The position numbers and the translations under genes are program-made. The notes beneath the pieces were generated by a model. That model was not told the origin of the DNA. It saw only the letters and a program-made list of their open reading frames with translations, and did no database searches. A DNA stretch of 64,000 nt from Candidatus Hydrogenedentota bacterium (GTDB lineage: Bacteria > Hydrogenedentota > Hydrogenedentia > Hydrogenedentales > SLHB01): assembly GCA_045863295.1 (NCBI GenBank), contig BTWA01000007.1, positions 77,889 through 141,888 of the forward strand. The letters are read 5' to 3'. Shown in pieces: positions 4,585 to 33,841 of this stretch. Within the stretch, counting starts at the first letter, position 1; each line of letters starts with the position of its first letter.

Positions 4585-4631
4585 ATCCAAGACAATTTCA
4601 TTGGCGAATTATCCTGCTCGACAGGTATACA

Positions 4632-7124: not shown

Positions 7125-7167
7125 TTGGGCTTGGCGATACTTCACTGTTTCGAAGGGGGATAAGGGT

Positions 7168-15938: not shown

Positions 15939-17645
15939 ATGACCAGCGGATTGGCGGCGGCGGATTACACCATACTCGCCGGATTCTTCATTGTGCTCCT
16001 TGCGATCGGCCTGTTCTACTCCGGACGTATGAGCACCCTGCGCGATTTTTTCAGCGGCGGACGCCACGTGCCTTGGTGGCTCGCCGGCATATCCCTGTAC
16101 ATGACCACCTTCAGCGCGTTTACATTCGTTTCCTATTCCGCACTGGCATACAAGCACGGCTTCGTGGCGGTGGCCATTTGGTGGTTTTCCATTCCGGGCT
16201 GCCTGTTGAGCGCCTGGTTCCTGGCTTCCCGATGGAGGCGCGCCGCCAGTACAAGTCCCGTCGAGTACCTGGAAACGCGGTACGGGCATGTACTCCGTCA
16301 GTCGTTCAGTTGGTTTGGCATTCCATTGATCGTGCTCGACGACGCATTGAAGTTGTATGTCATCGGCACCATGATGCGTGTGAGCATGGGGTTCGAAAGT
16401 GACAGCGCCATCAATTGGATTATTCTCTTCTGTGGAATAATCATGGTGCTTTACACGCTTCTGGGCGGCCTATGGGCCGTGCTCATCACCGACTTTATTC
16501 AGTTTGTCGTGATGGGGGTCGCCGTGCTCGTTTTATTGCCGCTGACATGGCGCAGGGCAGGAGGCATGGGCGCAATCGCCGATCACCTTCCCACAGGCTT
16601 TGGAGACATCACCGTTGAAACCTACACCTGGCCATGGCTGCTCTCCTTCGCGGTCGTCCTAGCGCTTACCTTCGCCACGAAGTGGCCCTATGTGCAGCGT
16701 TACTACGCCGCGCGCACCGATCAGGAAGCGCGCTGGGTCGGCTACCTCGTCGCCGCGCTCACCCTGCTCGGACCTCCGTTGTTGTTCTTTCCGGCATTCG
16801 GCGCACGCGTCTACCTGCCCGAAGTCGCGGACGCAAATCAGGTCTATGCCCTGCTCTGCAAGGAACTGCTGCCGGCGGGACTCATGGGTATGATGATCGC
16901 CGCCATGTTCTCCGCCACCATGTCCATGCTCTCCAGCGATTACAATTCCGTGGCTTCCGTGGTCACGAACGATATCGTCAAGCGGCTCTTTATGAAACAT
17001 GCATCAGAAAAGAGTCTTGTCCTCGTGGCCCGTCTTTCCACACTGGCCATCGGCCTTCTTGCCATGGGGCTCGCGCTGCTAATCGCTCAGGCAAAAACCA
17101 TGGACGACCTCGTCAAAATCATGGCACAGTTGTTTGCGGCATTGCTTCCTCCCGTGGCCCTTCCCATGGCCGCCGGTCTCTTGTGGCGCCGCGCCACCAA
17201 CGGCGGCGCGCTGATGGGGTTCGCGCTGGGTGCGACCTGCGGCATCGCCGCATCCATTGCAAGCTACACCACCGGCATGAGCTACCTCCGCGAAGTGCAG
17301 TATCTGACATGGCTCACCTTGCTGCCCACGGCCGCAGGCCTAGGACTCGGCAGTCTGCTCTTTGCGGATTCCGCCGATAAAAGCGAACAAGTGCGCAATT
17401 TCATGGACGGCCTGCAAGGCGCCACGGCGCACGTGCCCGAGCCCGCGAGCAAAACGGACGCGGCCGTGGCCATGCGCATTATCGGATTGACCACCCTGTT
17501 GTTGGGGTCATTGCTTTTCGTAAGTGTGTTGCTGACCGCGGGACTGAGTGGACGCGTCTCTCTTCTGGTGGGTCTGCTTATGGCTGCCGGCGGCATGGCA
17601 ACGTATTTGAAATCGCGCGCGATACTCGCCTGCGCTCAAGAGTGA
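15939..17645 (+). CDS. Sodium:solute symporter (SSF) family transporter
   Basis: Polytopic membrane protein with an SSF-like N-terminal pattern (YTILAGFFIVLLAIGLFYSGRMSTLRDFFSGGRHVPWWLAGISL). ATG 15939 is preferred over the TTG at 15918, with a purine-rich ggaaggg 12 nt upstream. Confidence 0.85.
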   Translation: MTSGLAAADYTILAGFFIVLLAIGLFYSGRMSTLRDFFSGGRHVPWWLAGISLYMTTFSAFTFVSYSALAYKHGFVAVAIWWFSIPGCLLSAWFLASRWRRAASTSPVEYLETRYGHVLRQSFSWFGIPLIVLDDALKLYVIGTMMRVSMGFESDSAINWIILFCGIIMVLYTLLGGLWAVLITDFIQFVVMGVAVLVLLPLTWRRAGGMGAIADHLPTGFGDITVETYTWPWLLSFAVVLALTFATKWPYVQRYYAARTDQEARWVGYLVAALTLLGPPLLFFPAFGARVYLPEVADANQVYALLCKELLPAGLMGMMIAAMFSATMSMLSSDYNSVASVVTNDIVKRLFMKHASEKSLVLVARLSTLAIGLLAMGLALLIAQAKTMDDLVKIMAQLFAALLPPVALPMAAGLLWRRATNGGALMGFALGATCGIAASIASYTTGMSYLREVQYLTWLTLLPTAAGLGLGSLLFADSADKSEQVRNFMDGLQGATAHVPEPASKTDAAVAMRIIGLTTLLLGSLLFVSVLLTAGLSGRVSLLVGLLMAAGGMATYLKSRAILACAQE

Positions 17646-17648
17646 ACC

Positions 17649-18965
17649 ATGGAATACGCCAAGAGCAAGTCCCTATATGATAGAGCCTGCACCGTCATCC
17701 CCGGCGGCATTAACAGCAACGTGCGCGCGGTCTCGGAACCGATACCGCTTTTCTATACGCACGGAAAAGACGCGCGCATCTGGGATGCCGACGGCAACGA
17801 ATACATCGACTATGTTCTCGGTCAGGGACCCATGCTCCTCGGCCATTCTCCCGCAAGAGTTATCGAAGCCATCAAGCAGCAGGCGGAGAAAGGCTTGGTA
17901 TACGCGGGACAATCCGAATCGGAAGTGCGCGCGGCTGAACTCATCCGTGAACTCGTGCCCTGCGCCGAAATGGTCCGGTTCAACACCACCGGTTCAGAAG
18001 CGGTGCATGCCGCCATTCGACTGGCCCGCGCCGCCACCGGACGCAAGAAAGTCCTCCGGTTCGAAGGCCACTACCACGGTTGGCTTGACACGATTGCATG
18101 GAATCCTCCCAAGCCCGGCGTTGCTCTGGGCCCACGCGAAAATCCTATCCTGCGCCCGTCTTCCAAGGGACAAACCGAAGAAGACGCCGCCAACCTCTTC
18201 GTACGCCCCTGGAACGACACCGCGCTCGCTGAAGATCTATTTCGCAACCACGGCTCGGAAATCGCCGCCGTCATCTGCGATCCCTTCGCGTGCGCGTCGG
18301 GACTGATCCCCGCGCAACAAGAGTTCCTGCGCACATTGCGCCGTCTTTGCAATGCCCATAATGCCGTCCTGATATTCGATGAAGTGATCACCGGTTTCCG
18401 CGTCGCGCTCGGAGGAGCGCAACAATACTACGGCGTCACGCCCGACCTCGCCACGTTTGCGAAGGCCCTGGGTGGCGGCGTTGCCGTCGCCGCCGTAGCT
18501 GGCAAAGCAGACCTCATGCGCCTGTTTGGCGAATTGGCCACCGTGCACGCCGGCACCTACAACGCAAATCCCCTGGCCATGGCCGCCACCGTGGCTGCCT
18601 TGGAGTTCCTGAAGGAAGAGGGCGGCGCCAATCTGCAACGGGCACACACGCACGGGCAACAGCTATGGGATGGCCTCTCAAACATCGCCGGCGAACTTAA
18701 ATTCCCCCTCCAACTGCGTGGAGTCCCCAGTGTGTTCAGCACCAGCGTTGTACCCGAAAGCGCGACACCGGTCGTCGACTTCCGAACCGCGCTACAGGCC
18801 GATGCGGAAACCGCAAATGCATTCTGGCGCGACATGCACCATCGCGGCGTGCAATTCACCGCGTTCGGTATCTGGTTTCTCTCTACGGCCCATACAAAAG
18901 CGGATATCGACCAGACCCTCGCGGCGGCCCGCGAGTCCCTCCGCGGTCTCGCCGCCCTGAGGTAA
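17649..18965 (+). CDS. Class-III PLP-dependent aminotransferase (glutamate-1-semialdehyde aminomutase-like)
   Basis: IPGGINSNVR...GHSPARVIEAIKQQAEKGLVYAG...FDEVITGFRVALGGAQQYYGVTPDLATFAKALGGG, with the lysine of the AKALGGG motif (TFAKALGGG) as the putative PLP Schiff-base residue. It starts 3 nt after the transporter stop. Confidence 0.85.
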   Translation: MEYAKSKSLYDRACTVIPGGINSNVRAVSEPIPLFYTHGKDARIWDADGNEYIDYVLGQGPMLLGHSPARVIEAIKQQAEKGLVYAGQSESEVRAAELIRELVPCAEMVRFNTTGSEAVHAAIRLARAATGRKKVLRFEGHYHGWLDTIAWNPPKPGVALGPRENPILRPSSKGQTEEDAANLFVRPWNDTALAEDLFRNHGSEIAAVICDPFACASGLIPAQQEFLRTLRRLCNAHNAVLIFDEVITGFRVALGGAQQYYGVTPDLATFAKALGGGVAVAAVAGKADLMRLFGELATVHAGTYNANPLAMAATVAALEFLKEEGGANLQRAHTHGQQLWDGLSNIAGELKFPLQLRGVPSVFSTSVVPESATPVVDFRTALQADAETANAFWRDMHHRGVQFTAFGIWFLSTAHTKADIDQTLAAARESLRGLAALR

Positions 18966-18973
18966 ATGCTGTT

Positions 18974-20464
18974 ATGCGTATTGCCATCGCCGGTTTCATG
19001 CACGAGTCCAACACCTTCACAGGCGAGAAGACCGAACTCCGCCATTTTCAGGAAGCCTACTACCATCGCGGCGAAGAACTTGTCCCGGTCTGGCAGGACG
19101 CGCATCACGAACTGGGCGGGTTTATTGCCGGTTGCCGCGAAGCGAACGTCGAACTTGTCCCGCTCCTGGCCGCATGGGCCACCCCCAAGGGCCCCGTCAC
19201 CGACGCGGCTTACGAACACATTGCCGCCGAACTGCTCAAATGCCTTCGCGCCGCGGGACCTATCGACGGCCTGCTGCTCGCGTTGCATGGGGCCATGGTC
19301 ACCGAATCGCACTCGAGCGCCGACAGCGAAACGGTGCGCCGCGTCCGCTCCGCAATAGGCTCAACCGTCCCGCTCATTCTCTCGCTCGATATGCACGCCA
19401 ATGTCACGGAAGACATGATTCGACTCCCAGACGCCACCGTCGCTTACCGCACCTATCCACATGTCGACCAACGCGAACGAGGACGCGAATGCGCCCGGCT
19501 TGCCATCGGCGCCGCGCAGGGAAAAATCAAACCGGTGCAGGCGGGATGCAAACTGCCCCTGCTGATTCACATCGTCCAGCAATTCACCGGCTCCGGCCCC
19601 ATGGCCAGCGTGTACAGTGCCGTTGAACGAACCGCGACCCAATCCGGCATCCTCTCGGTCTCGTGTTCGCCCGGATACATTTACGCCGATGTCCCGCACA
19701 TGGGCGTCTGCGTGAACGTCGTCGCAGACCGCGACACCTCGATCGCGAAGGCCGCTGCATCCGCACTCGCCAAGGAGATATTCGCATTAAGAGACGAATT
19801 GAACGCGGGATTGCCCGACACCGCCTCCGCCGTCGCACAAGCCAAAGCGCTCGAGGGTACCGTCTGCCTGATGGACTCCGGCGACAACATCGGCGGCGGC
19901 GGGCCCGGCGATTCCACCATTCTGTTTCACGAACTGTGCAAACAGGGCGTGCCCCGAGTTTGCGTCGTACTCTACGATCCCGAAGCCGCACGCACCTGCG
20001 CGGAAGCGGGGGAAGGCGTGCGCGTCGCCCTTAGGGTCGGAGCGAAAACCGACGCCCAACACGGTGCTCCCGCATCCATCACAGGGAAGGTGCTTCATAT
20101 CTCCGACGGCGTCTTCGTCGAGGAGGAAGCCCGCCACGGCGGCATGCGCGAATACAACCAGGGACTGACCGCGGTCGTGCACACCGACGACGGACACACG
20201 GTCGTCCTCAACAGTCTGCGTGTCATGCCCACCAGTCTGCGGCAACTGCTCAGCCTCGGCATTGATCCCGCAAAACACAAAGCCATCATCGTCAAAGGCG
20301 TTACCGCGCCCCGCGCCGCCTACGACCCTATCGCCGCGGCCATAATCCCCGTCGATACCCCCGGCGTCACCCAGGCCGGCCCCGAGGCATTCGAATACAA
20401 GAATCGCCCACAGCCGCTCTACCCGCTCGATCCGATCGAAAGCTGGAAACTAACATGCTGGTAA
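18974..20464 (+). CDS. M81-family metallopeptidase (MlrC/microcystinase C-like; DUF1485+DUF1446)
   Basis: The N-terminus MRIAIAGFMHESNTF is the hallmark of the MlrC N-terminal domain. The 496-aa length fits, and it starts 8 nt after the aminotransferase stop. Confidence 0.75.
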   Translation: MRIAIAGFMHESNTFTGEKTELRHFQEAYYHRGEELVPVWQDAHHELGGFIAGCREANVELVPLLAAWATPKGPVTDAAYEHIAAELLKCLRAAGPIDGLLLALHGAMVTESHSSADSETVRRVRSAIGSTVPLILSLDMHANVTEDMIRLPDATVAYRTYPHVDQRERGRECARLAIGAAQGKIKPVQAGCKLPLLIHIVQQFTGSGPMASVYSAVERTATQSGILSVSCSPGYIYADVPHMGVCVNVVADRDTSIAKAAASALAKEIFALRDELNAGLPDTASAVAQAKALEGTVCLMDSGDNIGGGGPGDSTILFHELCKQGVPRVCVVLYDPEAARTCAEAGEGVRVALRVGAKTDAQHGAPASITGKVLHISDGVFVEEEARHGGMREYNQGLTAVVHTDDGHTVVLNSLRVMPTSLRQLLSLGIDPAKHKAIIVKGVTAPRAAYDPIAAAIIPVDTPGVTQAGPEAFEYKNRPQPLYPLDPIESWKLTCW

Positions 20465-20726
20465 CATCGAAACCGGACAAAATGGAGAATTACTCACGCA
20501 ACGCCGCAAAGAACTTGAAAGTTCCGGATCTAAGTAGGCAAGAAGGAATCGCTGCTGAAATCAGGTACGTTTAAGCCCGAGCAACAACGGAAAATCCACG
20601 AAGTTCCAACTGAAAATCACTTTGCGTCTTCGCGACTTTGCGTGAAATCAAAATCGTGTCCTGGAAGTTTAGTTCTCATTGTGCGCGCAAAAGGGACTAT
20701 ACTTACTACCTATGGGCGTTCCAACG

Positions 20727-21851
20727 ATGACGTTTCTGCGCCGAAATTCGACTCAATTTCTTTGCGGCCTCTGCGTTTTCGCCCTCGTGCCCGATTCAAT
20801 TCCTGCGCAGGAATGGCCCACGCTGCCCGATGCAAACGCCGCCATCGTGGTGCCCGCCCAGGAATGGGCCTTCGAACCCGCCCCTCGCACGGTCAACGCC
20901 TACCTCCATTACCCCAACGGTTCGATCGCCAACGTCGACGCCAACACCGGCCTTATGCTCAGCCTGCACAACTGGGGCGGCACCCACGCCACCGGCGCGC
21001 CAGACCCCGATACGCTCGCCGATCGCTATAATGTCATTGCCATCTGCGTCGACTACCTGCAGAGCGGCAAATGGAATCCCGAAACAAATCACCCCTACGA
21101 CTTCGGTTACCTGCAGGCCCTCGACGCGCTCCGATCCCTCTATGCCGTCTGGTCCCAACTCGACGCGCGCGAGATCGCGTTCGACAAGGCTCGCATCTAC
21201 GCCGCGGGCGGCTCCGGCGGCGGCAACGTCGCCCTCATGGCCAACAAACTCGCCCCCCGCACCTTCGCCGCCATCGTAAACCTTAGCGGCATGGTGCGCC
21301 TCACCGACGACATCGCCTTCGGACTCGAAGGCGGAAGCGATCTCAACGCCGGATACAGCAACGATCCGAAAAGCCCACGCTTTTTATCGAAGGACGATCA
21401 GGAATTGCGCTTCATCGGAAATCCCGATCATCTCGTGAAACAGGTGTCCCTGGGAAACAAACCCAAAGTGATCGTGGTCCACGGCGCAAACGACGATACA
21501 TGCCCCACCGCGGACACGCGCCAAATGGTGGATACCATGATCGCCGCCGGAATGGACGTCGACGCCCACATCGTCGAAGAGAGTGATATAGACGGCGAAA
21601 TCTTCACCGACACAAAACACTCCCTCGGCGACCGGACAAAAATCGTCCTGCATCTGGCCGGCAAATACCTGCAGCCCGATTCCCCCGAAGCCGCCCGCCG
21701 CTCCATCCCCGCCGACTTCGATCGCAAAGACCGCGCCGTCCGCTACCCAACCCCCCGCGGCGTTTTCATCATCTCCTACGAAAACGGCTACCCCCAAGGC
21801 CGCTTCGAACGGAATGATCGCGATCCCTCCGATCAAGTCGTATTTCCCTGA
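20727..21851 (+). CDS. Secreted alpha/beta-hydrolase (esterase/peptidase-like, GGSGG nucleophile elbow)
   Basis: Internal ATG 20727 gives signal peptide MTFLRRNSTQFLCGLCVFALVPDSIPAQE. It has an AAGGSGGGNVALMA serine motif and downstream VIVVHGANDDTCP and His-containing segments, consistent with a Ser/Asp/His triad. Confidence 0.55.
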   Translation: MTFLRRNSTQFLCGLCVFALVPDSIPAQEWPTLPDANAAIVVPAQEWAFEPAPRTVNAYLHYPNGSIANVDANTGLMLSLHNWGGTHATGAPDPDTLADRYNVIAICVDYLQSGKWNPETNHPYDFGYLQALDALRSLYAVWSQLDAREIAFDKARIYAAGGSGGGNVALMANKLAPRTFAAIVNLSGMVRLTDDIAFGLEGGSDLNAGYSNDPKSPRFLSKDDQELRFIGNPDHLVKQVSLGNKPKVIVVHGANDDTCPTADTRQMVDTMIAAGMDVDAHIVEESDIDGEIFTDTKHSLGDRTKIVLHLAGKYLQPDSPEAARRSIPADFDRKDRAVRYPTPRGVFIISYENGYPQGRFERNDRDPSDQVVFP

Positions 21852-22014
21852 AGTGTGGATTCGTCAACAGAATACAAAGAGGGACAAAACGTAGCCCCAA
21901 TGCACACAACGGGATTGGTGAAGAAGCGCCAAAGCCATGCAGAGATTCCTGAACCGCAGATTCACTTTACTCGCTTCTTGCCTGTGTACATCTGTGTAAT
22001 CTGCGGACGATTCC

Positions 22015-22080
22015 TCATTCATTTGGCCGCGTCCACATCCCCATCGGATCCGGCCCGTCGCCCGTCTTGCCATGCACCGA
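22015..22080 (-). pseudogene. Relic 3'-terminal fragment (about 20 codons) homologous to the 3' end of the GHL-YVTN gene at 26628..28715
   Basis: The minus strand encodes ...VHGKTGDGPDPMGMWTRPNE* against ...KVLKTGDGPDPMSMWFPPRP* at the end of the intact gene. The nucleotide match includes an identical 23-mer, aagacgggcgacgggccggatcc. An in-frame TAG lies immediately upstream, so only the tail is present. Confidence 0.45.
22018..22075. repeat. Left copy of a roughly 55-60-bp imperfect direct repeat (ttggc..ccacat...ggatccggcccgtcgcccgtcttg...gcacc)
   Basis: Compared by eye with 26640..26695: the 24-nt core ggatccggcccgtcgcccgtcttg is identical and the flanks are about 75% identical. Confidence 0.6.
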
Positions 22081-22145
22081 AAGTCTCTACATAGTTGGCG
22101 CAAAAGCTGCTTTTTTTTCAGTTGCGGACTGACGCCTTTTGAACT

Positions 22146-22529
22146 ATGCTAACGCTGCTGTCCCTGTACTCCAATACTCAAGTTGTCGGCATAAGGGCAT
22201 TAATAATGCGTATTGCTGAGCAAAGCCAAGTGAGTCGAGTATGCATTCATTCAGCATTATTATGCTTTATCGCCGCAAATTGCGCTGCTGAGTCCAAACA
22301 CCCGGACGGGTACGTTTTCTACGCCGAAACCTTCGATTTCGGACATGTCGCCGCCGAAACTACCGCAGTGCACATGGAGCCTGCGACTCGCGCCAAGCTC
22401 ATCATTCAAGTTCCCTGGGATCCCAATCACGCTTCGCGTGTGTACAAATCTACGATTGAGGTAACGGCGCTCATCGATGGAAAGACGGAGCGAACCCAAT
22501 TGGAAGCATACGGACTGTACAACGATTAA
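22146..22529 (+). CDS. Hypothetical small secreted protein (low-GC region)
   Basis: 127-aa ORF with an internal hydrophobic N-region (VCIHSALLCFIAANCAAES). No recognisable domain. Local GC is about 40-47% against about 60% elsewhere. Confidence 0.45.
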   Translation: MLTLLSLYSNTQVVGIRALIMRIAEQSQVSRVCIHSALLCFIAANCAAESKHPDGYVFYAETFDFGHVAAETTAVHMEPATRAKLIIQVPWDPNHASRVYKSTIEVTALIDGKTERTQLEAYGLYND

Positions 22530-22603
22530 AAACGCTGGCATACGTCGCCGAACAGGCAAAAGTCGGTTTATCGTCAGCGTAACAACGATCGCAAGAGGTA
22601 TCC

Positions 22604-23620
22604 GTGATGATTCGGACAATCGCTTGGCCAATGATAGCAACCTTGACCGTACTGGCAGCCTCAGGGCAGGAACTCATTACCGGCCCGGCATCGGATCCGC
22701 CCGAAGAATTGCTGGTGCTCGCCCGGGAGTCTAAGGCGATCTACGACAGTATTACGTCATTTAGGGCACACGTCACTAAAGTAACTCGCACTGGGGGAGC
22801 GTCGGCACAAAGCCCAACGCAACCGGTAAACGAAAGAATCGATCGGGTCGAGGCGGAAATGGGCTTCAAGGATGGCTGGTACAGACTCATCCGCAACTGG
22901 ACCACCGAGACCAAGAACCCGGATACGACATCATTTCAAAAGATCACGGTTCTGCTGACGGATTCGTTCTTCTTCCAGTCGTTGGAAGGAAACGAGCAGC
23001 ATCCCGTCAAGACGAGCAGGCAATACTTCGAATTGGCTTCAAAAGATGCACTCGCGCCGAATCAGGATATGTACATCAAGCAGATGTGGAAGCCCGACCC
23101 TAGAATTTTTGGTTACACGATAGGCGACGGAACATTACTTATTGATTACATTGAAAAGATGTCGGATTATCCGGGAGCGGTGTGGTCCCTTCGAAAGTCG
23201 GAAGGAGTCTATTACGCTACAATCCACTTTGATGGTGATGTCCAGAACGGCAGACATCGATCATCCTTCGAAATAGACGCCGAGCGAGACTTCTTTATTC
23301 AGAAAGCAGAGTCGACCAATCGCGAAGGCGTAGTTGGAAGTAGTAGAACCATAGAGCCCCAACAGGTCGATGGTCTCTGGTTTGTCAGCCTTGTTCAAAG
23401 CAAGCTTGTTGATTTGGAGTCAGAAGTAACCTATACGAATGTCGAAATAAACCCAGAGTTTGACGTGGACTATTTCACTCTCAGAAGCTTTGCATTCAAG
23501 GAATCGGATACGATGAACTCGTATTCCCAGGATCGAAGCAGAAAGACGGAAATGGTCTATTGGGGTGGCAAATGGATATCAATCGACCAGTTACGGGAGA
23601 ACAGTATTCCAAAGAAGTGA
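22604..23620 (+). CDS. Hypothetical secreted protein (low-GC region)
   Basis: 338 aa with signal peptide MMIRTIAWPMIATLTVLAASGQE. No recognisable domain. The composition and codon usage are consistent with a real CDS. Confidence 0.55.
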   Translation: MMIRTIAWPMIATLTVLAASGQELITGPASDPPEELLVLARESKAIYDSITSFRAHVTKVTRTGGASAQSPTQPVNERIDRVEAEMGFKDGWYRLIRNWTTETKNPDTTSFQKITVLLTDSFFFQSLEGNEQHPVKTSRQYFELASKDALAPNQDMYIKQMWKPDPRIFGYTIGDGTLLIDYIEKMSDYPGAVWSLRKSEGVYYATIHFDGDVQNGRHRSSFEIDAERDFFIQKAESTNREGVVGSSRTIEPQQVDGLWFVSLVQSKLVDLESEVTYTNVEINPEFDVDYFTLRSFAFKESDTMNSYSQDRSRKTEMVYWGGKWISIDQLRENSIPKK

Positions 23621-23638
23621 CCCATCAGTTCTTGGCTG

Positions 23639-23672
23639 CAACTCCGGATTGAACAACACCCAACCGGAGTTG
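23639..23672 (+). terminator. Stem-loop (9-bp perfect stem caactccgg/ccggagttg, 16-nt loop) followed by a second short hairpin ccccactatgtgggg
   Basis: Inverted repeats read directly from the sequence, 19 nt after the stop of 22604..23620. There is no U-tract, so intrinsic-terminator function is uncertain. Confidence 0.3.
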
Positions 23673-23697
23673 TGGCCCCACTATGTGGGGTACCGCG

Positions 23698-26631
23698 ATG
23701 AAACGTCGATTTGCGCTCGTCTTGCTGTTGCTCAGCGTCACATTCGGTGCGGCTGTATTCTTCTTCGCCAATGGCCGGTCGAATGACAGCAATCGGCCAA
23801 TCCGCCCCGAAAAAGTGGAAGAGGCCAATTATTCCTTTGTCGAAACCGGCCCGGCACCCGAGCCGGAGCACATCGCGCGCGCGGCGATCCGCGCGGAGGG
23901 CGACGCGATACTCAGAGGCCGCGTTCTCGCGTTGGACGGCCAACCCGTTCCGAACGCCGCCATCCGGATCGTGGCGAAGACAACCACATGGAATCACGAA
24001 GGCGGCAGGGTCGGTGAAGAGACACGTCTGCAATCCGATCCCACAGGAGCGTTTGATGCATCACCGCTTCCATTCGGCCACTACCTCGTAATAGCAAGTC
24101 ACGAAGAAGGCTACGCATCCGAGGCGGTCCGCCTGACACGGCGCATCTCGCAAGAGGATGTGCTACTTGTGCTCCATCCGGGAGAGACCATCGCCGGACT
24201 TGTGCGTTCGACAGATGGAACCGCCATCGGCGGCGCGGAGGTGTTCCCCGTGGCATTCAATGGAACGCTTGTCCCGCGCGCCAAAATGGCTGCGTCCATG
24301 GTAACCACGGATTCTGACGGCCGCTTTGCGATGGGCGGATTGGCCGCGGGCCGTTGGATTCTGGTGGCAAAAGCCAAAGACTACGCGCCTGCGGAATCCG
24401 CGGAACAGGTGACCGGATCGGATTCCTGCGAGATCATTCTGGACGCGGGCGCACCGGTTCGCGGAACGGCCATCGACACCGTCACGAACCTGCCCATACC
24501 CAATCTCGTGGTTTCAGCCCTGCCAATCGGTACTCACATACCCAAGGAAACCATCAGCACGGACGATAACGGTCAATTCATGTTCGACCATCTGCCTCAG
24601 GTGAGCTGCGAAATCGGCGTGGACGATGAAAGCTATCTCCTTCTTGAAGGATTGCCGTTGGTGATGCCCGCCGAACCGGCACCGGACATCACGCTACGGC
24701 TCACCAAGGGCGGCGAAGTACGCGGACGCGTGTATGAGGTGGCGTCCGGAGAAGGCGTGAGCGAGGTTCGAATCAGCGCGGAGATCCGGTCGGCGATCGG
24801 CACTTTCCAATTCCAGACTCAGCAGCGCAAGCCGGGCGAACCGGAGATCCCGCTCCGCACTCCATCGACCCTCCCGGACGGCACGTTTTCCATTACTGGC
24901 CTCGCGCCGGGCATGTACCACATTAGCGCGAGTTCGTTTGTGCCCGGCTTCGGGTCAACCCGGCAACGCGATATGGAAACAGACGTGCAACTCAATCCCG
25001 GCGATGTAATTGAAGGGATAGAATTTGCTATAGACCGGGGCATCGTGATGAGCGGACTTGTAGTGGACGTGGATGGGAAGCCGGTGCCCGGATCACGGGT
25101 CAATTGCTGGTATCTCGAAAAAGTGTCCAGGCGGAGCCAGGTTGCCAATGCCGATAACGCCGGCCGGTTCGTGTTTACAGAGATGCGTCCCGATCACGAA
25201 GTAACGGTGTGGGCCGAAGCCGGATCGACAGAAAGCGAAAAAATCGGCCCGCTGATGATCCCGGCCGGTGGACTCCATGAAGTGAAGATCGTAATGACGG
25301 CTACAAAAGATGCAAAGATCAGCGGTACCGTCGTCAATCAGCAAGGCAAACCAGTCGAAGTAACGGTAACAGGCCTCGAACAGACTGAACTGCCAAACCC
25401 AAAGCGGTTCACCACTCAATCCGCATCGGATGGCCGTTTCCTGGTCCCTAACGTGTCTGCGGGAGTGTACGACGTCTCGCTGAACGCGGGCAGGAACGAA
25501 AAACGTCCCGCAGGCGAGGTCACCGTCAATCCAGGCCAGTTTGTACGGGACGTCAGGCTCGTTTTTGAAGAGCAGCCTCTCTATACCATCGAAGGGCATG
25601 TCTCGGACGAAAGCGGCAATCCCCTTGAAGCCTATGTTTCCTATAACCGGGTTGTAGAGAGTACGGCAACGAATCTGGGCGGCGTTCGTTCAGGATCGGA
25701 CGGCTCTTTTCGGATTGAGGGCTTGGAGCAAGGCGCCTATTCCATACACGCGGACTGCGCCGGGTTTGCGTCAGAAGCCACCATGGTAAACGCGGGTGAT
25801 TCAGGAATTCAGATTGTGTTGCGACCGCTAACCGGCACGCTCGCGGGCCGTGTTGTGGATGTGCAAGGCCACGCGGTTCCCGCATTCCGGATTGCTCTCT
25901 TTCGCGATAGTGATTATCGCGGGGTATCCAGCGCGCCCAAAAACATCGTCGATCAGGCTGGGTCATTCGAAATGCAAGTGCGTGAAGGCACATACCGCAT
26001 AGAAGTGCAGGCAGACGGTTATCTTGCAGAGGAAAAAGACGCGGTCGAGGTGGCAACGGGGCAACGCTCGACCGCCACCTTCACCTTGCGGCCGGGAGAT
26101 GCGGAAGTGCGCGGAACGATCGTGGATGCGGCGGGTCAACCCGTGGTATCGGCAAAGATCTTCACGCAGAGACAGCAGGAAAACGGCGAACTGGGCACGA
26201 GTTCCGCCGCGGCCCGATCCGATGCGGAAGGCAGATTCACCCTCCACGCCGTTCCAGACAAACCGCTTGCGATCTCGGCCACGCATCCCAGCGCCGGATC
26301 CGGTTCCGCGATGGTGACGCCAAGATCGAACGCTCCGCAGTCGGTGACCATCGCGTTAGCCGCATTGGGAAAAGTGACAGGGGCTATTCGTGTCCAGGGA
26401 AACCCGCTCACCGGCGGCACAGTCCTGTTGTGCCGGGGCGGCATTGCGTTGTCCTCGGAGTACACCAAGGCCGGTGGCTTATACGAATTCGATCAGGTGG
26501 AAGCAGGCAGATACGACATTGTGGCCTACCCAGGCTTCATAAGCCAAAGTTATCAAGACGCCCCCGCGCCACTCTCTAGAACAGCCGAAATCGTGGACGG
26601 CGCTGTTACCGTAGTCGATTTTGATTTCTAG
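23698..26631 (+). CDS. Large membrane-anchored/secreted protein composed of about 10-12 tandem carboxypeptidase-regulatory-like (CarboxypepD_reg, transthyretin-like beta-sandwich) domains
   Basis: Start MKRRFALVLLLLSVTFGAAVFFFA (signal anchor). A unit of about 80-90 aa recurs, opening with [LIV]xGxVxDxxGxPVxxAx[IV] (LRGRVLALDGQPVPNAAIRIV; IAGLVRSTDGTAIGGAEVF; VRGRVYEVASGEGVSEVRI; MSGLVVDVDGKPVPGSRVN; ISGTVVNQQGKPVEVTVTG; IEGHVSDESGNPLEAYVSY; LAGRVVDVQGHAVPAFRIALF; VRGTIVDAAGQPVVSAKIF; VTGAIRVQGNPLTGGTVLL). Confidence 0.7.
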   Translation: MKRRFALVLLLLSVTFGAAVFFFANGRSNDSNRPIRPEKVEEANYSFVETGPAPEPEHIARAAIRAEGDAILRGRVLALDGQPVPNAAIRIVAKTTTWNHEGGRVGEETRLQSDPTGAFDASPLPFGHYLVIASHEEGYASEAVRLTRRISQEDVLLVLHPGETIAGLVRSTDGTAIGGAEVFPVAFNGTLVPRAKMAASMVTTDSDGRFAMGGLAAGRWILVAKAKDYAPAESAEQVTGSDSCEIILDAGAPVRGTAIDTVTNLPIPNLVVSALPIGTHIPKETISTDDNGQFMFDHLPQVSCEIGVDDESYLLLEGLPLVMPAEPAPDITLRLTKGGEVRGRVYEVASGEGVSEVRISAEIRSAIGTFQFQTQQRKPGEPEIPLRTPSTLPDGTFSITGLAPGMYHISASSFVPGFGSTRQRDMETDVQLNPGDVIEGIEFAIDRGIVMSGLVVDVDGKPVPGSRVNCWYLEKVSRRSQVANADNAGRFVFTEMRPDHEVTVWAEAGSTESEKIGPLMIPAGGLHEVKIVMTATKDAKISGTVVNQQGKPVEVTVTGLEQTELPNPKRFTTQSASDGRFLVPNVSAGVYDVSLNAGRNEKRPAGEVTVNPGQFVRDVRLVFEEQPLYTIEGHVSDESGNPLEAYVSYNRVVESTATNLGGVRSGSDGSFRIEGLEQGAYSIHADCAGFASEATMVNAGDSGIQIVLRPLTGTLAGRVVDVQGHAVPAFRIALFRDSDYRGVSSAPKNIVDQAGSFEMQVREGTYRIEVQADGYLAEEKDAVEVATGQRSTATFTLRPGDAEVRGTIVDAAGQPVVSAKIFTQRQQENGELGTSSAAARSDAEGRFTLHAVPDKPLAISATHPSAGSGSAMVTPRSNAPQSVTIALAALGKVTGAIRVQGNPLTGGTVLLCRGGIALSSEYTKAGGLYEFDQVEAGRYDIVAYPGFISQSYQDAPAPLSRTAEIVDGAVTVVDFDF

Positions 26632-28715
26632 GGTCTTGGCGGAAACCACATGCTCATGGGATCCGGCCCGTCGCCCGTCTTGAGCACCTTTTCCACTTCC
26701 AGTTTTCCCATGTCAATCACATGCAGACCGTCGAGATGTTCGCAACCCACAAATGCCCGTTTCTCATCCGGGGTCAACTCGACTCCAATGGCAAACGGCC
26801 CCACGGCGATGCGTTTCAGCTCCGTGCGGGTCGTCACATCAATGACAATGAGTTCGCCTTTCTCCGTCCAGCTCGGCACGAGCGCCTTCGTTCCGTCTTT
26901 CGTGAACTTGATACGCACGGGCATGCCGGGACAGGGAAAGGTCTCAATGGGCTCATGCGTGGCGAGATCGATGATCGTGATCGAACCACCGGATTGATTC
27001 GCGGCCCACAAGTGTTTTCCATCCGGCGTAAACGCCATGCCTTCGACGCCCTTGCCGCAGGGGATTTGCTTCATCAATTCTCCGGATTTCCGGTCGATTA
27101 CTGACACCGTCTGCGATTCGATATTGGCGGTATACAATCGCTCGTTGTCCGGCGACACGAGCACCATATGCGATATCTTGCCGTGCGTGGGAATGGCTCG
27201 CGTCACCTCGTGTGTGGCCGTATCCACCTCCACGACGAAACCGGTCTGTCCGGCGGTGAAGTAAGCATGCTTTCCGTCGGGCGCCATGGTGGCCCCGTGG
27301 ATGCGCGTGTACTCGCCGGTCTTGATCTGTTTGATGTGTTTTCGCTGCGTCAAATCGACGACCGAAATTGTATCCCCCGGCGCTTCGTAGTTGGAGAGAT
27401 ACATGAACCGCTGATCCGGCGTGATGCACATCTCATGGGGATTCGGTCCGGTCGAAATCACGTCCAGCACGGCAAGCGTATGGGGATCGATAAACGTGAC
27501 GGTATCGTCATGCTTGTTCGCCACGGTGAAGATCGGCCCTTCGGGCCACACGGCCACCCCGCGCAAGGTCTCCGCCGAAGCAATCTCTTTCAAGACCGCA
27601 AACGGCGGCTCTTCACCACGTTCGCGCGTGGTGAAGAAATTGAACACTTGAATGCCGTCCGCGCCGACCTGCCACAATCGCCGCGCCATCTCGCGATACA
27701 TCTCCGGTTCCCGTGCAACTTCAATGGACGCATACAAAGGGAATTCCTGGGGCAACGCTTTCCGGTACGCCTTGAGGGGCAAGGGAAAATCATTCCGCAA
27801 GTAGTGCGAAACAATCACCATATCCAGCAGTCCGTTCTTCGCCCACGACACCGGATCGATTCCAATGGCCGTGTTCTGTTCCGGTTTGGCCATGATCCGC
27901 GCGCACAACAAAATTGGCCGTCCCCGCTGGTCTCCGATCTCCTTGGTCATGGCGCGAATCTCACTCATCCAAGCCGTCATCGTGGGGATGTGCTGTTGTT
28001 CCTCGCCGGGCTTGAAGTACATGGGAAACCGCTGGAAATCGAGATCAAGGCCGTCGAGGTCGTAGCGCTCGCAACATTCGCGAAGCATGGCCAAGGTGTA
28101 CGCCCGCACCTCGGGTATCGCAAAGTTCAACCCCGCCGGAAGCCACGTAGCCACGATCGGGTGCGTGTCCGGACCCAGAATCTCGTGATACACCGGCGGC
28201 AAGGGATCGCTGTGTTTGCCGATGCGCCACTCCGGATGGTCTTTCCAGAATCGCGAGAGAATGACGTGGTCTTCATATTCAACGGCATGAACCTCGTTCA
28301 AGCGAAACGATATGAACGCCTCCATGCCGCGCTCTTTCGCGCGCGATAGGATAAGCGCGATCGGATCATGACCGGCCGAAATCAGCCCGCGCAGATTGAG
28401 GATCCCGCGCTCGGTCGTCTTCTCGGCCGCGTCCGGCGTAATCCGCGCCGCAATCGCGGGGTTCACGTGCTCGCCGATAAAGTCGCCCACCTTCGTGGGA
28501 TAGTTCAGCGTCATCCCGATGTTGGGGCTCATCAGGAACGTGGTAACCTCCGTATCCGCGACTTCATCCACATGCCGGTACACATCCTCCGGCGTCATCG
28601 GCGGCTGCTTGTAAATAAACATGTTGTCGCCGTCGCTGTTGTACAAAATCCGGTGCGGTCCCGCGTGTGCAGCAACAACAACGAACAAGAAACCGGCAAA
28701 AAATCTACACGTCAT
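26628..28715 (-). CDS. Secreted fusion protein: N-terminal glycoside-hydrolase-like TIM-barrel domain (GHL/DUF4015-type, tentative) + C-terminal YVTN-family beta-propeller repeats
   Basis: Signal peptide MTCRFFAGFLFVVVAAHAGP. The N-terminal half (LYNSDGDNMF...DLDGLDLDFQRFPMYF) resembles uncharacterised GH-like TIM barrels. The C-terminal half has about 6 repeats of the YVTN propeller pattern (GPNPHEMCITPDQRFMYLSN...ISVVD; ATMAPDGKHAYFT...VVEVD; MVLVSPDNERLYTAN...VSVID; GMAFTPDGKHLWAAN...ITIID). Its stop overlaps the stop of the convergent gene 23698..26631 in the tetranucleotide CTAG. Confidence 0.65.
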   Translation of the reverse strand: MTCRFFAGFLFVVVAAHAGPHRILYNSDGDNMFIYKQPPMTPEDVYRHVDEVADTEVTTFLMSPNIGMTLNYPTKVGDFIGEHVNPAIAARITPDAAEKTTERGILNLRGLISAGHDPIALILSRAKERGMEAFISFRLNEVHAVEYEDHVILSRFWKDHPEWRIGKHSDPLPPVYHEILGPDTHPIVATWLPAGLNFAIPEVRAYTLAMLRECCERYDLDGLDLDFQRFPMYFKPGEEQQHIPTMTAWMSEIRAMTKEIGDQRGRPILLCARIMAKPEQNTAIGIDPVSWAKNGLLDMVIVSHYLRNDFPLPLKAYRKALPQEFPLYASIEVAREPEMYREMARRLWQVGADGIQVFNFFTTRERGEEPPFAVLKEIASAETLRGVAVWPEGPIFTVANKHDDTVTFIDPHTLAVLDVISTGPNPHEMCITPDQRFMYLSNYEAPGDTISVVDLTQRKHIKQIKTGEYTRIHGATMAPDGKHAYFTAGQTGFVVEVDTATHEVTRAIPTHGKISHMVLVSPDNERLYTANIESQTVSVIDRKSGELMKQIPCGKGVEGMAFTPDGKHLWAANQSGGSITIIDLATHEPIETFPCPGMPVRIKFTKDGTKALVPSWTEKGELIVIDVTTRTELKRIAVGPFAIGVELTPDEKRAFVGCEHLDGLHVIDMGKLEVEKVLKTGDGPDPMSMWFPPRP
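26640..26695. repeat. Right copy of the roughly 55-60-bp imperfect direct repeat, lying inside the 3' end of the GHL-YVTN gene
   Basis: See 22018..22075. This copy encodes the true C-terminus ...KTGDGPDPMSMWFPPRP*. Confidence 0.6.
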
Positions 28716-29093
28716 CGATCCCCCTCTCCTGCGTCACAGGCCAACGTTCGCCTTCAACGCTTAACAAAGCAGAAAACAGTGAGAAATTCCATCAATAACC
28801 CTTGTTTTGTTTTTTTGATTCACCTGCGAAATGCAACACCCCATGACAAATAAGTAAGAGTAACATGTAACAAGACTCGAGCACAGGTGTTGAAATGCAT
28901 CTTCATCCGCGTGAATCCGGATTCTCTTTTCCGGCCTCGGAATAGGCTTGTCGCTTGAAACCGGTTTCATTCGCGATAGTTACCGATAGAGCATAGAGCG
29001 ACTTTAGGAGTCTTCGCACGGGCCCCGCAGGTTTCCCAGAAAGAGAATAAGAAGCGTAGTCGGACGCCCATTGCATGGACTCTGCCCATGCAC

Positions 29094-30506
29094 CTACGCC
29101 AGCACGCCCTGTACAACCTTTCCGTGTACGTCCGTAAGCCGGTATAGGCGTCCCTGAAATTTGTACGTGAGCCGCTCGTGATCGATGCCAAGCAAGTGCA
29201 ACAGCGTGGCATGGAAATCGTGCACGTGCACGCCGTTCTCCGCCACGTTGTAGCCGAACTCGTCCGTCTGGCCGTACGACAGGCCCGGTTTCACGCCGCC
29301 GCCCGCCATCCACACCGTAAAGCAGCGGGGATGATGATCGCGCCCGTAGTTGCCGTCGCTGAGTTTGCCCTGCGAGTAGTTGGTGCGCCCAAATTCGCCG
29401 CCCCAGATGACCAGGGTCTCGTCCAGCATGCCGCGCCGTTTCAAGTCCATGATCAGGGCCGCGCAGGCCTGGTCCGTCTCTTTGCATTTTACTGGGAGAT
29501 TCTTCGGCACGTCGCCGTGATGGTCCCAGTCCCGGTGGTACAGTTGAATGAATTTCACGCCCCGCTCGGCCAATCGCCGGGCCAACAGGCAGTTCGACGC
29601 GAAAGAACCGGGATCGCGCGAATCCGGCCCGTATTCCTCAAAGATCGAATGCGGTTCGTCGGACATGTCGGTCACATCCGGCACGGAGGTTTGCATGCGG
29701 TAGGCCATTTCATACTGCGCAATGCGGGATTCCAATCCCGTGTGCCCGGTTTGTGCCAGTTGCCATTCGTGCAACTCCTTGAGCCGGTCCAGCAACATGC
29801 GGCGGCTTTCGCCCGTCACGCCGTCCGGGTTGGTCAGGTAAAGCACCGGATCGGCCCCGGCCCGGAATTGCACGCCCTGGTGGGTTGATGCAAGGAATCC
29901 GCTGCCCCAAAGCCGCGAATACAGCGGCTGGCCGCCCTTGGCCTTGGTCAACATCACCACGAAGGAAGGAAGATTCTCGTTTTCGGATCCCAGGCCGTAA
30001 GACAACCAGGACCCGATGCACGGCCGGCCCGAAAGTTGGGATCCGGTCTGCAGAAACGTAATCGCGGGATCGTGATTAATCGCCTCCGTGTACATGGAAC
30101 GAATCACGCACAACTCATCCGCCACCTGCGCCGTGTAGGGAAGCTGATCGCTGATCCACTGCCCGCTTTGGCCATGTTGCTTGAACTGGAATACCGACCC
30201 CGCGAGCGGCAGGGACGACTGGTTCGCCGACATGCCCGTGAGCCGCTGGCCCTGCCGCACGGAGTCCGGCAACTGCTGCCCATTGAGCTCGTTCAGCAGC
30301 GGTTTGTAATCGAACAAGTCCATCTGCGAGGGACCGCCGCTCTGAAAGAGATAGATCACCCGCTTCGCCTTCGGCGCGTAATGGGGGAGATCCAATGCCA
30401 TACCGGGTGCAACGCTCGCACCGGCCCCGGAGGGATTGAGTAGATTGGCCAAAGCCATGCCGCCAAGGCCCATGCCGAACCGGTTCAAAAAACGCCGACG
30501 GCTCAT
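29094..30506 (-). CDS. DUF1501 domain protein (sulfatase/alkaline-phosphatase-like fold) with Tat signal
   Basis: The N-terminus MSRRRFLNRFGMGLGGMALANLLNPSGAGA has a twin-arginine motif. The rest fits the conserved DUF1501 layout, including the ...DHHGD... and C-terminal GGGVKPG-type motifs. The internal Met at 30506 is preferred over track 30554. Confidence 0.85.
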   Translation of the reverse strand: MSRRRFLNRFGMGLGGMALANLLNPSGAGASVAPGMALDLPHYAPKAKRVIYLFQSGGPSQMDLFDYKPLLNELNGQQLPDSVRQGQRLTGMSANQSSLPLAGSVFQFKQHGQSGQWISDQLPYTAQVADELCVIRSMYTEAINHDPAITFLQTGSQLSGRPCIGSWLSYGLGSENENLPSFVVMLTKAKGGQPLYSRLWGSGFLASTHQGVQFRAGADPVLYLTNPDGVTGESRRMLLDRLKELHEWQLAQTGHTGLESRIAQYEMAYRMQTSVPDVTDMSDEPHSIFEEYGPDSRDPGSFASNCLLARRLAERGVKFIQLYHRDWDHHGDVPKNLPVKCKETDQACAALIMDLKRRGMLDETLVIWGGEFGRTNYSQGKLSDGNYGRDHHPRCFTVWMAGGGVKPGLSYGQTDEFGYNVAENGVHVHDFHATLLHLLGIDHERLTYKFQGRLYRLTDVHGKVVQGVLA

Positions 30507-30564
30507 GCCGTCCAGGGGCTCCGGACCGGTGCAAACGGGGCAATGTCTATCCATGAAACCAACC

Positions 30565-33500
30565 TCAATACTTGGTTTGAAATGCGTCCACGTTCATGAT
30601 CAATTGGGCCACGGCGGTGGCGGCTGCATACTGCGCGGGATCAAAATCCTCCCGCCGCGGTCTTTCGCCCACATCCGTGTAGGCAATGGCTTCTTCGGCA
30701 TGTGCGGTGTAATACGCAACTTGCTCGTCGTATGCCTGCTGTAAAATTGCCGCTTCTTCCGGCGAAGGGCTTTGGCTCGTTAATGCGCGGTACATGTGCG
30801 TAAGGCGCGCTTCCACATCGGAATGCGCATCCATCGCCTTTTCGGCCAATACCCGCGAAGCTTCAATATACTGCGGATCGTTCAACAGGATCAGGGATTG
30901 AAGCGGAGTCGCCGTGACTTCGCGCCGCACCGTGCACACTTCCCGGTTCGGCGCGTCGAACGTGGCCAACGTGACCGGATGCACCGTGCGCTTCCAGTAC
31001 GTGTACATGCTTTTCCGATAGAGACCGTCGCCCGAGTCGGGCACATAGGTAAGGCCGCTGGCGTCAATCCAGAGATCCGTGGGCTGATACGGCTTCACAC
31101 TGGGTCCCCCCACGGTCGTCACCAGCAGGCTGCTGGCAGCAAGTGCATTATCCCGTATCAGTTCCGCGGAAAGCCGCTGCCGCGGTCCACGTGCGAGCAA
31201 AACGTTGTGCGGATCGCGGTCGGTCAGGTCCGGGCGCGGAGTCGAGTCCTGGCGGTACGTCGCGGACATGACAATCAACTTGAGCAGTTGTTTGGTATCC
31301 CAGCTGGAGTCCCGGTATTCCTTGGCCAGCCAGTCCAGCAAATCCGGATGGGAAGGCGCGCGGCCCTGGGTGCCGAAATCCTCCTGGGTTTCCACCAGTC
31401 CACGGCCAAAAACCATCAGCCAATACCGGTTGACGGCCACGCGCGCCGTCAACGGGTGGTCAGGCTCGAAAAGCCATTGGGCCAATCCCAGGCGGTTTGC
31501 AGGACGCTCGCCGAACGGCATAATGCTCTCCGGCGTGGACGGTTGCACCGGATCGGTCGGGTGATCGTACGCGCCGCGAGCCAGCACGTACGCCTGTCGC
31601 GGTTCCGGCATGTCTCGCATCACCATAATTTCAGGAACCCCGCCAATAAACGTATTCTCGATTTCCCTGGCGACCTGCAATGCCGTTGTGGCATCGCGAT
31701 ACGCCGGATCGACCGCAAGAAGGTAATACGCAAAGAGCGAATCCTCGGCGGCAGGATCCGTCCCGGTGCAACGTTCCGCGATAATAGTAGGGAGATCGTG
31801 TTGGCCGGCTATGGATTCCACTTCCAGCGACGAAATCTCGCGATCGAAAACCATGAATTCATCGAGAAGGCCGTTCGTGAATCCGTTGTCGCGAAAGCGT
31901 TGCCCAAGATGGAGGGCAGGGGAGTCTTTAGGGTCGGCGTACATGATTGTTTTGTACAGATTGTCGCGAATCACCTCTGTTTCAAGGAGTGTGCCGTTCA
32001 TGAACAGGCGGATGCCGGAAGCCTTGCTGGAGCCGTCGTAGGTCACGGCCACATGTGTCCAGGCGTCGATGGGAATCGCTTCCTTCGCGGTCACCCGCAC
32101 GGCATTGCCCGGCCAAAAGTGATTCAACGCAAACTCAGGCCGGCCCTGATTCAGCAGAAGCTCGTAGCCGCGGCTGGCGGCATCGAGAGACGCCTTGGAC
32201 GCATGGCACACCACCATGCGATCCGTATGGCCCGGAATTCGGATCCACGATGCAATGGAAAACGGTTGGCACCGTTCGAACTTGCCCTGCTCGGCGAGTT
32301 TCACCGCGTCTTCGCCGCTAAATAACGCGGCGTGGCCCACTTTGCCCTCCGTTGCGGTCACGCCGGAGTCGACGTCCGCGGGTTTGTCCGCCGTGCTCGT
32401 ATTGGGCGTCTTGCCATCGGAAATTTCGTCGAACGGTAAGTGTGCGATAGGCGCCAGCGGCGGCGCGTTTCGATCGGGACTGTTTCGCCACGCAACGAAG
32501 CGCTCGCGAGCCGGTTCGATGGCCTGTGCGCGTTCGGCAACCTTGGCCTGTATCGATTCCATGTGCCGGACGTGTTCCGCGCGTGATTCCTCGGTCGTCA
32601 GGAACATCCCGGGCGACGGAGTTGCATTGGTGAAGTGGGAGTACATCCCCGATTCGTCCAGATTGTTGAAAAACGAGAACAGGCTGTAGTAATCGCGTTG
32701 CGAGATGGGGTCGAACTTGTGGTCGTGACAGCGTGCGCAATCCATCGTCAGACCGAGGAACGCGGTCGAGAAAGTATTCGCGCGATCCGCAACATAGGCC
32801 ACGCGGAATTCTTCAGGGATACTGCCGCCTTCGTTGGTTTGACGATGTAGGCGGTTGAATGTCGTGGCAAGGACCTGATCCTGGCTTGGATTGGGCAGGA
32901 GATCGCCTGCAAGCTGCCACGTTACAAATTGGTCGTAGGGCATGTTTTCAGTGAATGCCCTGATGACCCAGTCCCGCCAGGGCCATACAAACATTTCGAC
33001 ATCCGCCTGATAGCCATAGGTATCGCCATACCGCGCAAGATCGAGCCACTCATTGGTCATGCGCTCGCCGTACGCCGGCGACTCCAAAAGCCGATCGACC
33101 AGCCGCTCATAAGCGCCTGGCGCTTCGTCGGCAAGAAACGCGTCAATCTCTTCAAGCGATGGCGGCAACCCGGTAAGGTCCATGGAGACTCGGCGGATGA
33201 GGATTTCTTTGTTCGCTTGGGGTGAGGGTGTCAATCCCTCGGCCTGCAAACGCTCAAGGATAAACAGATCGACAGGAGTCTTCGCCCAACCTGCGCTGTC
33301 TCGAATATCCGGCAGTGGGGTGTCCGCCAACGGAATGAACGCCCAGTGTGGTTTGTATTCGGCGCCCTCCCGGACCCATCGAACCAGTTTCTCAATCTGG
33401 GTCGAATCCAGTACGCGCTTGGAATCGGGCGGCGGCATTTTCTCAGATGGATCTCCGCTCGTGATACGCTTGACCAGTTCGCTTGCATCCGAGTTTCCAG

Positions 33501-33723
33501 GCACGACCGCGCCCTTGCTCTTGGCCTCCTCGGCGACGTCCAGCCGGAGTCCGGCCTTGCGCTGGTTGGCGTCCCGGCCGTGGCAATGAAAACAGTTGTC
33601 CGCCAGGATCGGCCGGATATCGCGATTGAAGTCCAGCGGTTTCGTTTGGCCGTATGCGGCTGTGGCAAAGCCGGCAAATGCAGCCCAGAAGGAATAGAAC
33701 AAAACAGCCCGATACATAAACAC
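30565..33723 (-). CDS. Planctomycete-type cytochrome c domain protein (PSCyt1/PSCyt2/PSD1; DUF1549/DUF1553) with concanavalin/LamG-like insert
   Basis: Signal peptide, then a heme-binding CxxCH (DNCFHCHG) near the N-terminus. DUF1549-like ([21 protein letters not shown]) and DUF1553-like (C-terminal) regions are present in 1052 aa. The gene sits immediately upstream of the DUF1501 gene, the canonical pairing. Confidence 0.85.
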
Positions 33724-33841
33724 CTGACCATCAAGTTGCAGCCGCGCCCTCGTGGGGCAGGAGACACACTCGCATCTCTTGCCTTACTCTACAACCCTCG
33801 GCCGAAAGGCGCAAGGAGCCTGCCGTCGCGACGCAGGGCGG

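Follow-up and report, generated by a model that had tools for sequence, protein, structure and literature searches.

How can the closing codons of a gene stand a second time in a chromosome, 4.6 kb downstream of the intact gene and with no gene body in front of them? The question is raised by a 64-kb stretch of DNA, hereafter the window, which is part of a 215,708-bp contig of the metagenome-assembled genome (MAG) AMXMBFR84 of Candidatus Hydrogenedentota. A gene in this window encoding a GHL10-like domain and a YncE/YVTN beta-propeller (the GHL-YVTN gene) is intact, and the 3' end of a gene of the same family, hereafter the orphan, lies in the same orientation next to a DUF2920 esterase gene. 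Between the two copies there is a block of three genes. Our preferred answer, put forward tentatively and at somewhat less than an even chance, is that this block represents the scar of an old Campbell-type insertion into the 3' end of the GHL-YVTN gene, of the kind known from e14 in icd or from cis-mobilizable elements (CIMEs), and that it is now immobile.

One core and two tails

The strongest repeat of the whole window is a direct one, in which a repeat search paired 22023-22069 with 26636-26682 (47 nt, 85% identity) at a spacing of 4613 bp. Seen from the gene, the last 55 nt of GHL-YVTN (26628-26682, minus strand) recur as the orphan at 22015-22069 in the same orientation. Both copies consist of an identical core followed by a diverged tail, and the features involved are these:

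26628-28715, minus strand: GHL10-like plus YncE/YVTN beta-propeller gene (AMXMBFR84_15120), 695 amino acids (aa), intact; domains from Pfam, end motif shared by homologues
26659-26682, minus strand: core copy 2, within the intact gene, from the repeat search and a mismatch scan
26628-26658, minus strand: live tail A, ten codons and a stop with which the GHL-YVTN gene ends (PMSMWFPPRP), fitting the family consensus TGDGPDPMSMW[FY]PP
22046-22069, minus strand: core copy 1, in the orphan, encoding (L/G)KTGDGPD-P, an exact 24-nt match to 26659-26682
22015-22045, minus strand: orphan tail X, ten final codons and stop (PMGMWTRPNE) from a GHL/YVTN-family gene whose body is missing upstream
22070-22145, no strand assigned: junction region U, 76 nt, without similarity to the YVTN gene in alignment

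On the minus strand the 24-nt core reads CAAGACGGGCGACGGGCCGGATCC in both places. The end of the live gene translates as KTGDGPDPMSMWFPPRP, with its stop codon at 26628-26630, and that of the orphan as KTGDGPDPMGMWTRPNE, with its stop at 22015-22017. One stop codon lies 8 codons upstream of the orphan, and nothing similar to the GHL-YVTN gene precedes it. In the alignment, the homology of the orphan to the gene breaks off sharply at the 5' edge of the core, and tblastn with 11 family proteins returned no significant further piece of the family gene in 21500-26700 beyond the 15-residue tail; neither tblastn nor the alignment revealed residual, gradually decaying gene-body homology beyond the orphan fragment. 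An earlier note on this DNA, made from the sequence alone, had described the recurrence of the gene's 3' end as a relic in the same orientation, and this description holds, translations included. Its coordinates for the copy in the target gene (26640-26695) are about 12 nt off, as the gene ends at 26628, and the identical core that it gave as 23 nt is one nucleotide longer. That the core is specific to this locus is borne out within the window, where the two copies are the only ones at up to 3 mismatches, no third copy exists and 0/100 shuffles contain any match. The DNA of the core and of the relic tail had 0 exact matches in a metagenome collection. Misassembly is ruled out, because run DRR491770, assembled independently in Logan, agrees base for base across the locus, over window positions 16628-34068 (17.4 kb).

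The duplicated end is a mosaic. The two copies differ at 0/24 positions of the core and at 14/31 positions of the tail that follows (Fisher p = 7.9e-5). Amino acid conservation combined with codon bias does not explain the identity of the core, because the chance of finding the same seven codons for the same residues in a second copy is about 1e-3 under the codon usage of the window, and because codon-aligned core identity reaches at most 18/21 in all 68 foreign homologues, even where the amino acids are identical. The homologue at locus L001, 73% identical and with the same core amino acids, shows four synonymous differences in the core. Tails X and A, on the other hand, are identical at 18/30 positions, just what unrelated members of the family in other phyla show on average, and both retain the P-M-x-M-W-x-x-P positions and a stop at the usual place. 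Nearly all homologues end in TG[DN]GPDP[MI]x[ML]W[FY]PP and two or three further residues. A hidden Markov model (HMM) of the family tail was run on 43,055 six-frame fragments, taken from the window and from 75 fetched family loci. It scored the orphan with E = 3.6e-8, so that the orphan is a genuine C-terminal fragment of a family member; this was the sole match that does not end a long reading frame, and the window contains no family tail besides X and A. An identity of 18/30 in tails that have nevertheless both kept the conserved pattern and the stop indicates that, before they were joined, each had evolved as the functional end of a separate gene. The identical core, the diverged family tails and the lack of homology on the other side of the core show that two anciently diverged family tails were joined recently to one core, by recombination at or next to it. 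Assigning the orphan tail to a clade through its nearest tail (P0017/L036, 23/30) was rejected, since this value is within chance for the best of 68 comparisons.

The core holds a tandem 7-mer (GACGGGC GACGGGC). The point at which identity gives way to divergence lies, in the orphan, within the 8-nt palindrome CGGATCCG, where the live gene reads CGGATCCC. A sigma-70-like promoter match (TTGCCA-17-CATAGT, 22067-22095, plus strand) begins at the edge of the orphan core and is directed at the three-gene block. It is no more than a match to the consensus, of a kind that shows no enrichment relative to shuffles.

A proposed insertion into the 3' end of the GHL-YVTN gene

The block between the two copies consists of three co-oriented plus-strand genes for secreted or envelope proteins, separated by gaps of 62-76 nt:

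22146-22529, plus strand: open reading frame (ORF) of 127 aa with a hydrophobic N-terminus, called in the Logan assembly as 107 aa starting at 22206; 50.0% GC
22604-23620, plus strand: ORFan of 338 aa (AMXMBFR84_15100) whose N-terminus resembles a signal peptide; lowest GC of the window (49.2%)
23683-26631, plus strand: membrane-anchored protein of 982 aa with about 10 CarboxypepD_reg repeats (Pfam); 58.9% GC, native-like codon use

For the 127-aa ORF, neither Pfam nor PHROG gave a match. The 338-aa protein found only itself among 5.8 billion proteins, likewise without a Pfam or PHROG match, and its AlphaFold model (pLDDT 31.7, mostly strand) is unusable for a fold search; this ORF is either truly an ORFan or perhaps no gene at all. 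The array of CarboxypepD_reg repeats in the 982-aa protein, already recognised in the earlier note, was confirmed by Pfam with 10 repeats, and the closest relatives of this protein share 32-35% identity with it and stay colinear as far as the last residue. None of the three block proteins matched a PHROG family of known function, and no Pfam remnant turned up in any of the six frames of 21852-22603.

A GC content of about 40-47%, as first stated for the cargo, is too low, given the values of the two small ORFs and a lowest 400-nt window of 46%. What stands of the low-GC cargo is that these two ORFs are the lowest in the window; it does not extend to the native-like 982-aa gene, and several other genes are at 51-52% within a range for genes in the window of 49-63%. 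Foreign-looking composition is limited to the 1.5 kb of ORFan sequence. The intergenic stretch 5' of the YVTN gene (28716-29093, 378 nt) is also markedly low in GC, at about 47%, so that low GC in the window is not restricted to the bracketed block.

According to the insertion reading, a 4,613-bp block (22070-26682, equivalently 22046-26658) would have been gained rather than lost, having entered the GHL-YVTN 3' end by one reciprocal crossover, presumably made by an enzyme, within the 24-bp sequence common to the gene and a circular incoming molecule. Beside the 24-bp site, the incoming DNA would have borne a diverged version of the family's ten terminal codons. After the insertion, the incoming tail, PMSMWFPPRP plus stop, would have come to end the GHL-YVTN gene, while its former end, PMGMWTRPNE plus stop, would have been displaced 4.6 kb downstream beside the DUF2920 gene to persist there as the orphan. 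If the two cores recombined, the block would be excised and a 695-aa frame restored, now ending in the other tail. Today, the block would be a fixed scar, or at most movable by a recombinase encoded elsewhere. We favour this reading because one step explains the identical core, the old divergence of the tails, the sharp loss of homology, the intact gene and the position of the core on a circle: if the block is closed, the core falls into the single gap, of about 130 nt, that separates the last gene from the first. It is further supported because two of the three block genes have no detectable family and the lowest GC in the window, and because a second family locus was unseen in 18 Hydrogenedentota genomes. 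Each of these genomes showed one family locus only, so carrying two copies is not usual for the phylum.

A considerable number of observations weigh against it. Pfam searches of all ORFs found no recombinase, integrase, transposase or excisionase either in the block, as the earlier note had said of the interval between the repeats, or in the whole 64 kb, and no recombinase remnants in alternative minus-strand ORFs or in the six frames of 21852-22603. There is no tRNA in the 64-kb window. Arm-type repeats were not seen, the inner ends of the block sharing no more short repeats than shuffles do. The search of the cargo against mobile-element collections that had been proposed came back empty, with 4.8 kb of DNA unmatched in phage or plasmid collections and no function-annotated PHROG match, and the core and degenerate tail motif had 0 matches in 2.9 million viral contigs. 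Neither a regular expression nor the tail HMM detected an orphan tail in the 75 other family loci, and no related integrase-bearing element or other occupant of the site was present in these loci or in the viral contigs. No relative in the collections is close enough to show an empty site, the nearest homologues being 73% (YVTN) and 62% (DUF2920) identical, and there is no synteny with the window at L001 and L002, the loci of homologues P0002 (73%) and P0017 (61%). Moreover, the 982-aa gene makes up 64% of the block and has native GC, native codon use and a natural C-terminus. The stops of this gene (which ends at 26631) and of the YVTN gene (which ends at 26628) do overlap in CTAG, as noted earlier, and this overlap fits long-standing neighbours at least as well as an insertion. 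The initial proposal of integration into a gene 3' end is supported by the geometry and, as a new result, by the mosaic repeat, a pattern that crossing over at an att-like core produces, as in e14/icd-icdC; it is left without a recombinase, arm-type repeats or a second case in 75 loci.

Precedent for an insertion comes from e14 and from CIMEs. In Escherichia coli K-12, e14 is flanked by icd and the C-terminal pseudogene icdC (PMC13626634), and CIMEs of 1.2-13 kb, with attachment (att) sites in the 3' ends of protein genes and without recombination genes, are reported to be common (PMC7563491). As with e14 or phage 21 in icd, the intact gene would run into an insert that supplies diverged last codons; as with icdC, the displaced original end would be a C-terminal pseudogene at the far side, and recombination of the copies would restore a full-length chimera. 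However, e14 is about 15 kb long, carries its own integrase and excisionase in addition to prophage genes, and has been observed to excise, whereas the block is 4.6 kb long, has no recombination or phage genes and is bracketed by a duplicated stretch of 55 nt. Like the CIMEs of streptococci in the 3' ends of fda, rpsI, rpmG and rplL, it is a cargo-only block at the 3' end of a protein-coding gene, with direct repeats that resemble att sites and without recombination or transfer genes. In contrast, CIMEs are recognised via related integrative and conjugative elements (ICEs) or integrative and mobilizable elements (IMEs) with an integrase at the same att site, often in tandem, while the block, in an unrelated phylum, has no related element, tandem partner or other site occupant in 75 loci. 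Both geometric hallmarks of an element in a gene 3' end are present here and the recombinase is absent. The block should not be classed with the e14/icd type or with the CIMEs, and at most works like them. If the insertion reading is true, the locus is a small example of how envelope genes peculiar to one lineage, an ORFan among them, reached a little-known uncultured phylum while leaving the target gene undamaged, and it would point to a 24-bp recombination site inside a conserved protein motif.

Alternative histories of the locus

The main rival, a possible but rather doubtful one, sees the orphan as the remnant of a lost second GHL/YVTN gene that ended at 22015 beside the DUF2920/MlrC cluster. 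Gene conversion from the surviving gene would have overwritten part of this paralogue including the core, and a deletion or replacement would then have left 55 nt. The three genes would be ordinary residents, or the 1.5-kb low-GC part alone would be new, and nothing would ever have been mobile. The third option of the earlier note, a recombination product without an element, takes the form here of such a paralogue homogenised by gene conversion, and is held with the same doubt. A lost paralogue requires no recombinase and accords with the native composition of the 982-aa gene and with the overlap of its stop with that of the YVTN gene. Deletion remnants are common in bacterial genomes, which likewise counts for it. 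In a one-genome-per-species scan that gave 72 loci with family members (50 with at least 5 kb downstream of the gene), tandem same-strand family paralogues were found at 4/72 loci, in Bacteroidota. The proximity of MlrC to YVTN genes, within 6-7 kb in six Bacteroidota loci, moreover, makes a family member beside MlrC and DUF2920 plausible.

A case in point is locus L055 of an uncultured Cytophagales, where paralogues of 725 and 726 aa (1375-3552 and 6254-8434) lie 4,879 bp apart with patchy identity. Their first 300 nt are 83% identical, and a perfect run of 92 nt breaks off four codons short of the stop and gives way to divergence; a third family member, of 378 aa, comes after the pair. To us, the pair looks like concerted evolution in the family. 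The likeness to the window lies in the same family, the same strand, a distance of about 4.9 kb and a run of identity that ends a few codons before the stop. Yet both L055 copies are full-length, similar throughout and not family-like in their ends after the break, whereas the second copy in the window is 55 nt only, with an anciently diverged bona fide family tail. The L055 pair are recent duplicates. The two tails of the window, by contrast, are as diverged as homologues from different phyla (18/30), and gene conversion between such copies is disfavoured. A lost paralogue is also at odds with a second family locus in 0/18 Hydrogenedentota genomes and with the absence of any further gene-body trace in 21500-26700, and it needs three separate events (paralogue, conversion, deletion). 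Cluster look-ups of ten NCBI homologues for paralogues from the same MAG brought up the sister MAG AMXMBFR82 only. If a paralogue was indeed lost, the history of the locus is one of routine gene loss. Under either reading current understanding is unchanged, since the mechanism class has long been known (e14/icd; ICEs, IMEs and CIMEs in gene 3' ends), and the kind of event is well known whichever history holds. For annotation, 22015-22069 should be entered as a pseudogene fragment and the GHL-YVTN gene as intact.

An unlikely alternative is a one-off recombination that involved neither an element nor a paralogue, for example complex repair, template switching, or acquisition from a related genome that was already so arranged. 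It draws its appeal from the difficulties of the other two, as the insertion has to do without a recombinase and with a native-looking 982-aa gene, and the lost paralogue needs conversion between diverged copies. Its better-defined forms, however, are excluded by the geometry, because two cores and an in-frame diverged tail remain unexplained: a double crossover with a linear fragment, or homology-facilitated illegitimate recombination, replaces host DNA and cannot yield two host cores, and target-site duplication cannot give an in-frame family-like tail. There is also no transposase in the window, and the repeat search found no terminal inverted repeats at the block ends. On the same grounds a transposon or insertion sequence was rejected, the repeat, in addition, running into a diverged in-frame tail.

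Improbable, in our judgement, is a more active variant of the insertion, in which the block would be a cassette without a recombinase of its own, still mobilised in trans by a chromosomal recombinase reading the 24-bp site in the KTGDGPDP motif, so that the last ten residues would be swapped. If true, it would be, to our knowledge, the first integrative element known from Hydrogenedentota, with a conserved protein-coding motif as its target.

We give very little credence to the idea that the orphan is kept for a function, be it as the source of a plus-strand RNA antisense to the YVTN mRNA at its 3' end or as a partner in programmed excision that swaps the last ten residues. The perfectly kept core, the intact frame and stop of the orphan, and its position 164-218 nt 3' of the DUF2920 stop on the opposite strand would suit such a role, but a recent event explains the perfect preservation of the core equally well. 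Furthermore, there is no match to Rfam families in 20000-29500, the folding signal of the spacer is weak (z = -1.97), no recombinase is present in the window and no second case occurs in 75 loci. Chance similarity or an assembly artefact is practically out of the question in view of the 0/100 shuffles matching the core, the tail HMM score of E = 3.6e-8 and the identity of the independent assembly over 17.4 kb.

Gene family and chromosomal surroundings

The GHL-YVTN protein has hundreds of homologues, the best of them 73% identical, and its 90% cluster has a single member. Its homologues have GHL-YVTN, DUF1080-GHL-YVTN or DUF1080-YVTN architectures. The closest (P0002-P0016, 60-73%) are 920-975 aa long and carry an N-terminal DUF1080 (3-keto-disaccharide hydrolase-like), whereas the 695-aa protein of the window is without DUF1080, its signal peptide directly preceding the GHL domain. 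The family as a whole is modular, as GHL alone, DUF1080-GHL, DUF1080-YVTN, GHL-YVTN and DUF1080-GHL-YVTN were all seen.

The neighbourhood of the block is ordinary chromosome. By Pfam, a solute symporter, a class-III aminotransferase, an M81/MlrC peptidase and the DUF2920 esterase (AMXMBFR84_15080) lie on the left side of the locus and DUF1501 and PSCyt/PSD genes on the right, while farther out the window holds a resistance-nodulation-division (RND) efflux system, a two-component system and glycoside hydrolases. Two features adjoin the orphan on the left:

20679-21851, plus strand: DUF2920/S9-type esterase gene (Pfam), the left flank, convergent with the orphan tail across a 163-nt spacer
21881-21898, minus strand: terminator-like hairpin with T-run, about 117 nt 3' of the orphan stop and on the orphan's strand; a consensus match only

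Terminator-like sites are no more numerous in the window than in shuffles. MlrC/M81 genes 33-36% identical to that of the window (18974-20464) are found about 2-7 kb from YVTN genes at six loci (L035, L039, L042, L052, L060 and L063, all Bacteroidota), which echoes the order MlrC, DUF2920 and orphan tail in the window and suggests a functional link. Similarly to the right flank of the window, a Pirellulaceae MAG (L027, 2740-6231) has DUF1501 and PSD/DUF1553 genes a few kb from its YVTN gene.

The second-ranked repeat of the window is direct and pairs 12041-12073 with 49102-49134 (33 nt, 82% identity, 37 kb apart). Four large ORFs at 324-9555 (376, 1007, 830 and 819 aa) are without a Pfam match at E <= 1e-5. 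The 1007-aa ORF among them has a 46%-identical homologue at L054 (14202-17189), 3.3 kb 3' of the YVTN family gene there, and this region of L054 also shows weak similarity to the heparinase II/III-like protein of the window.

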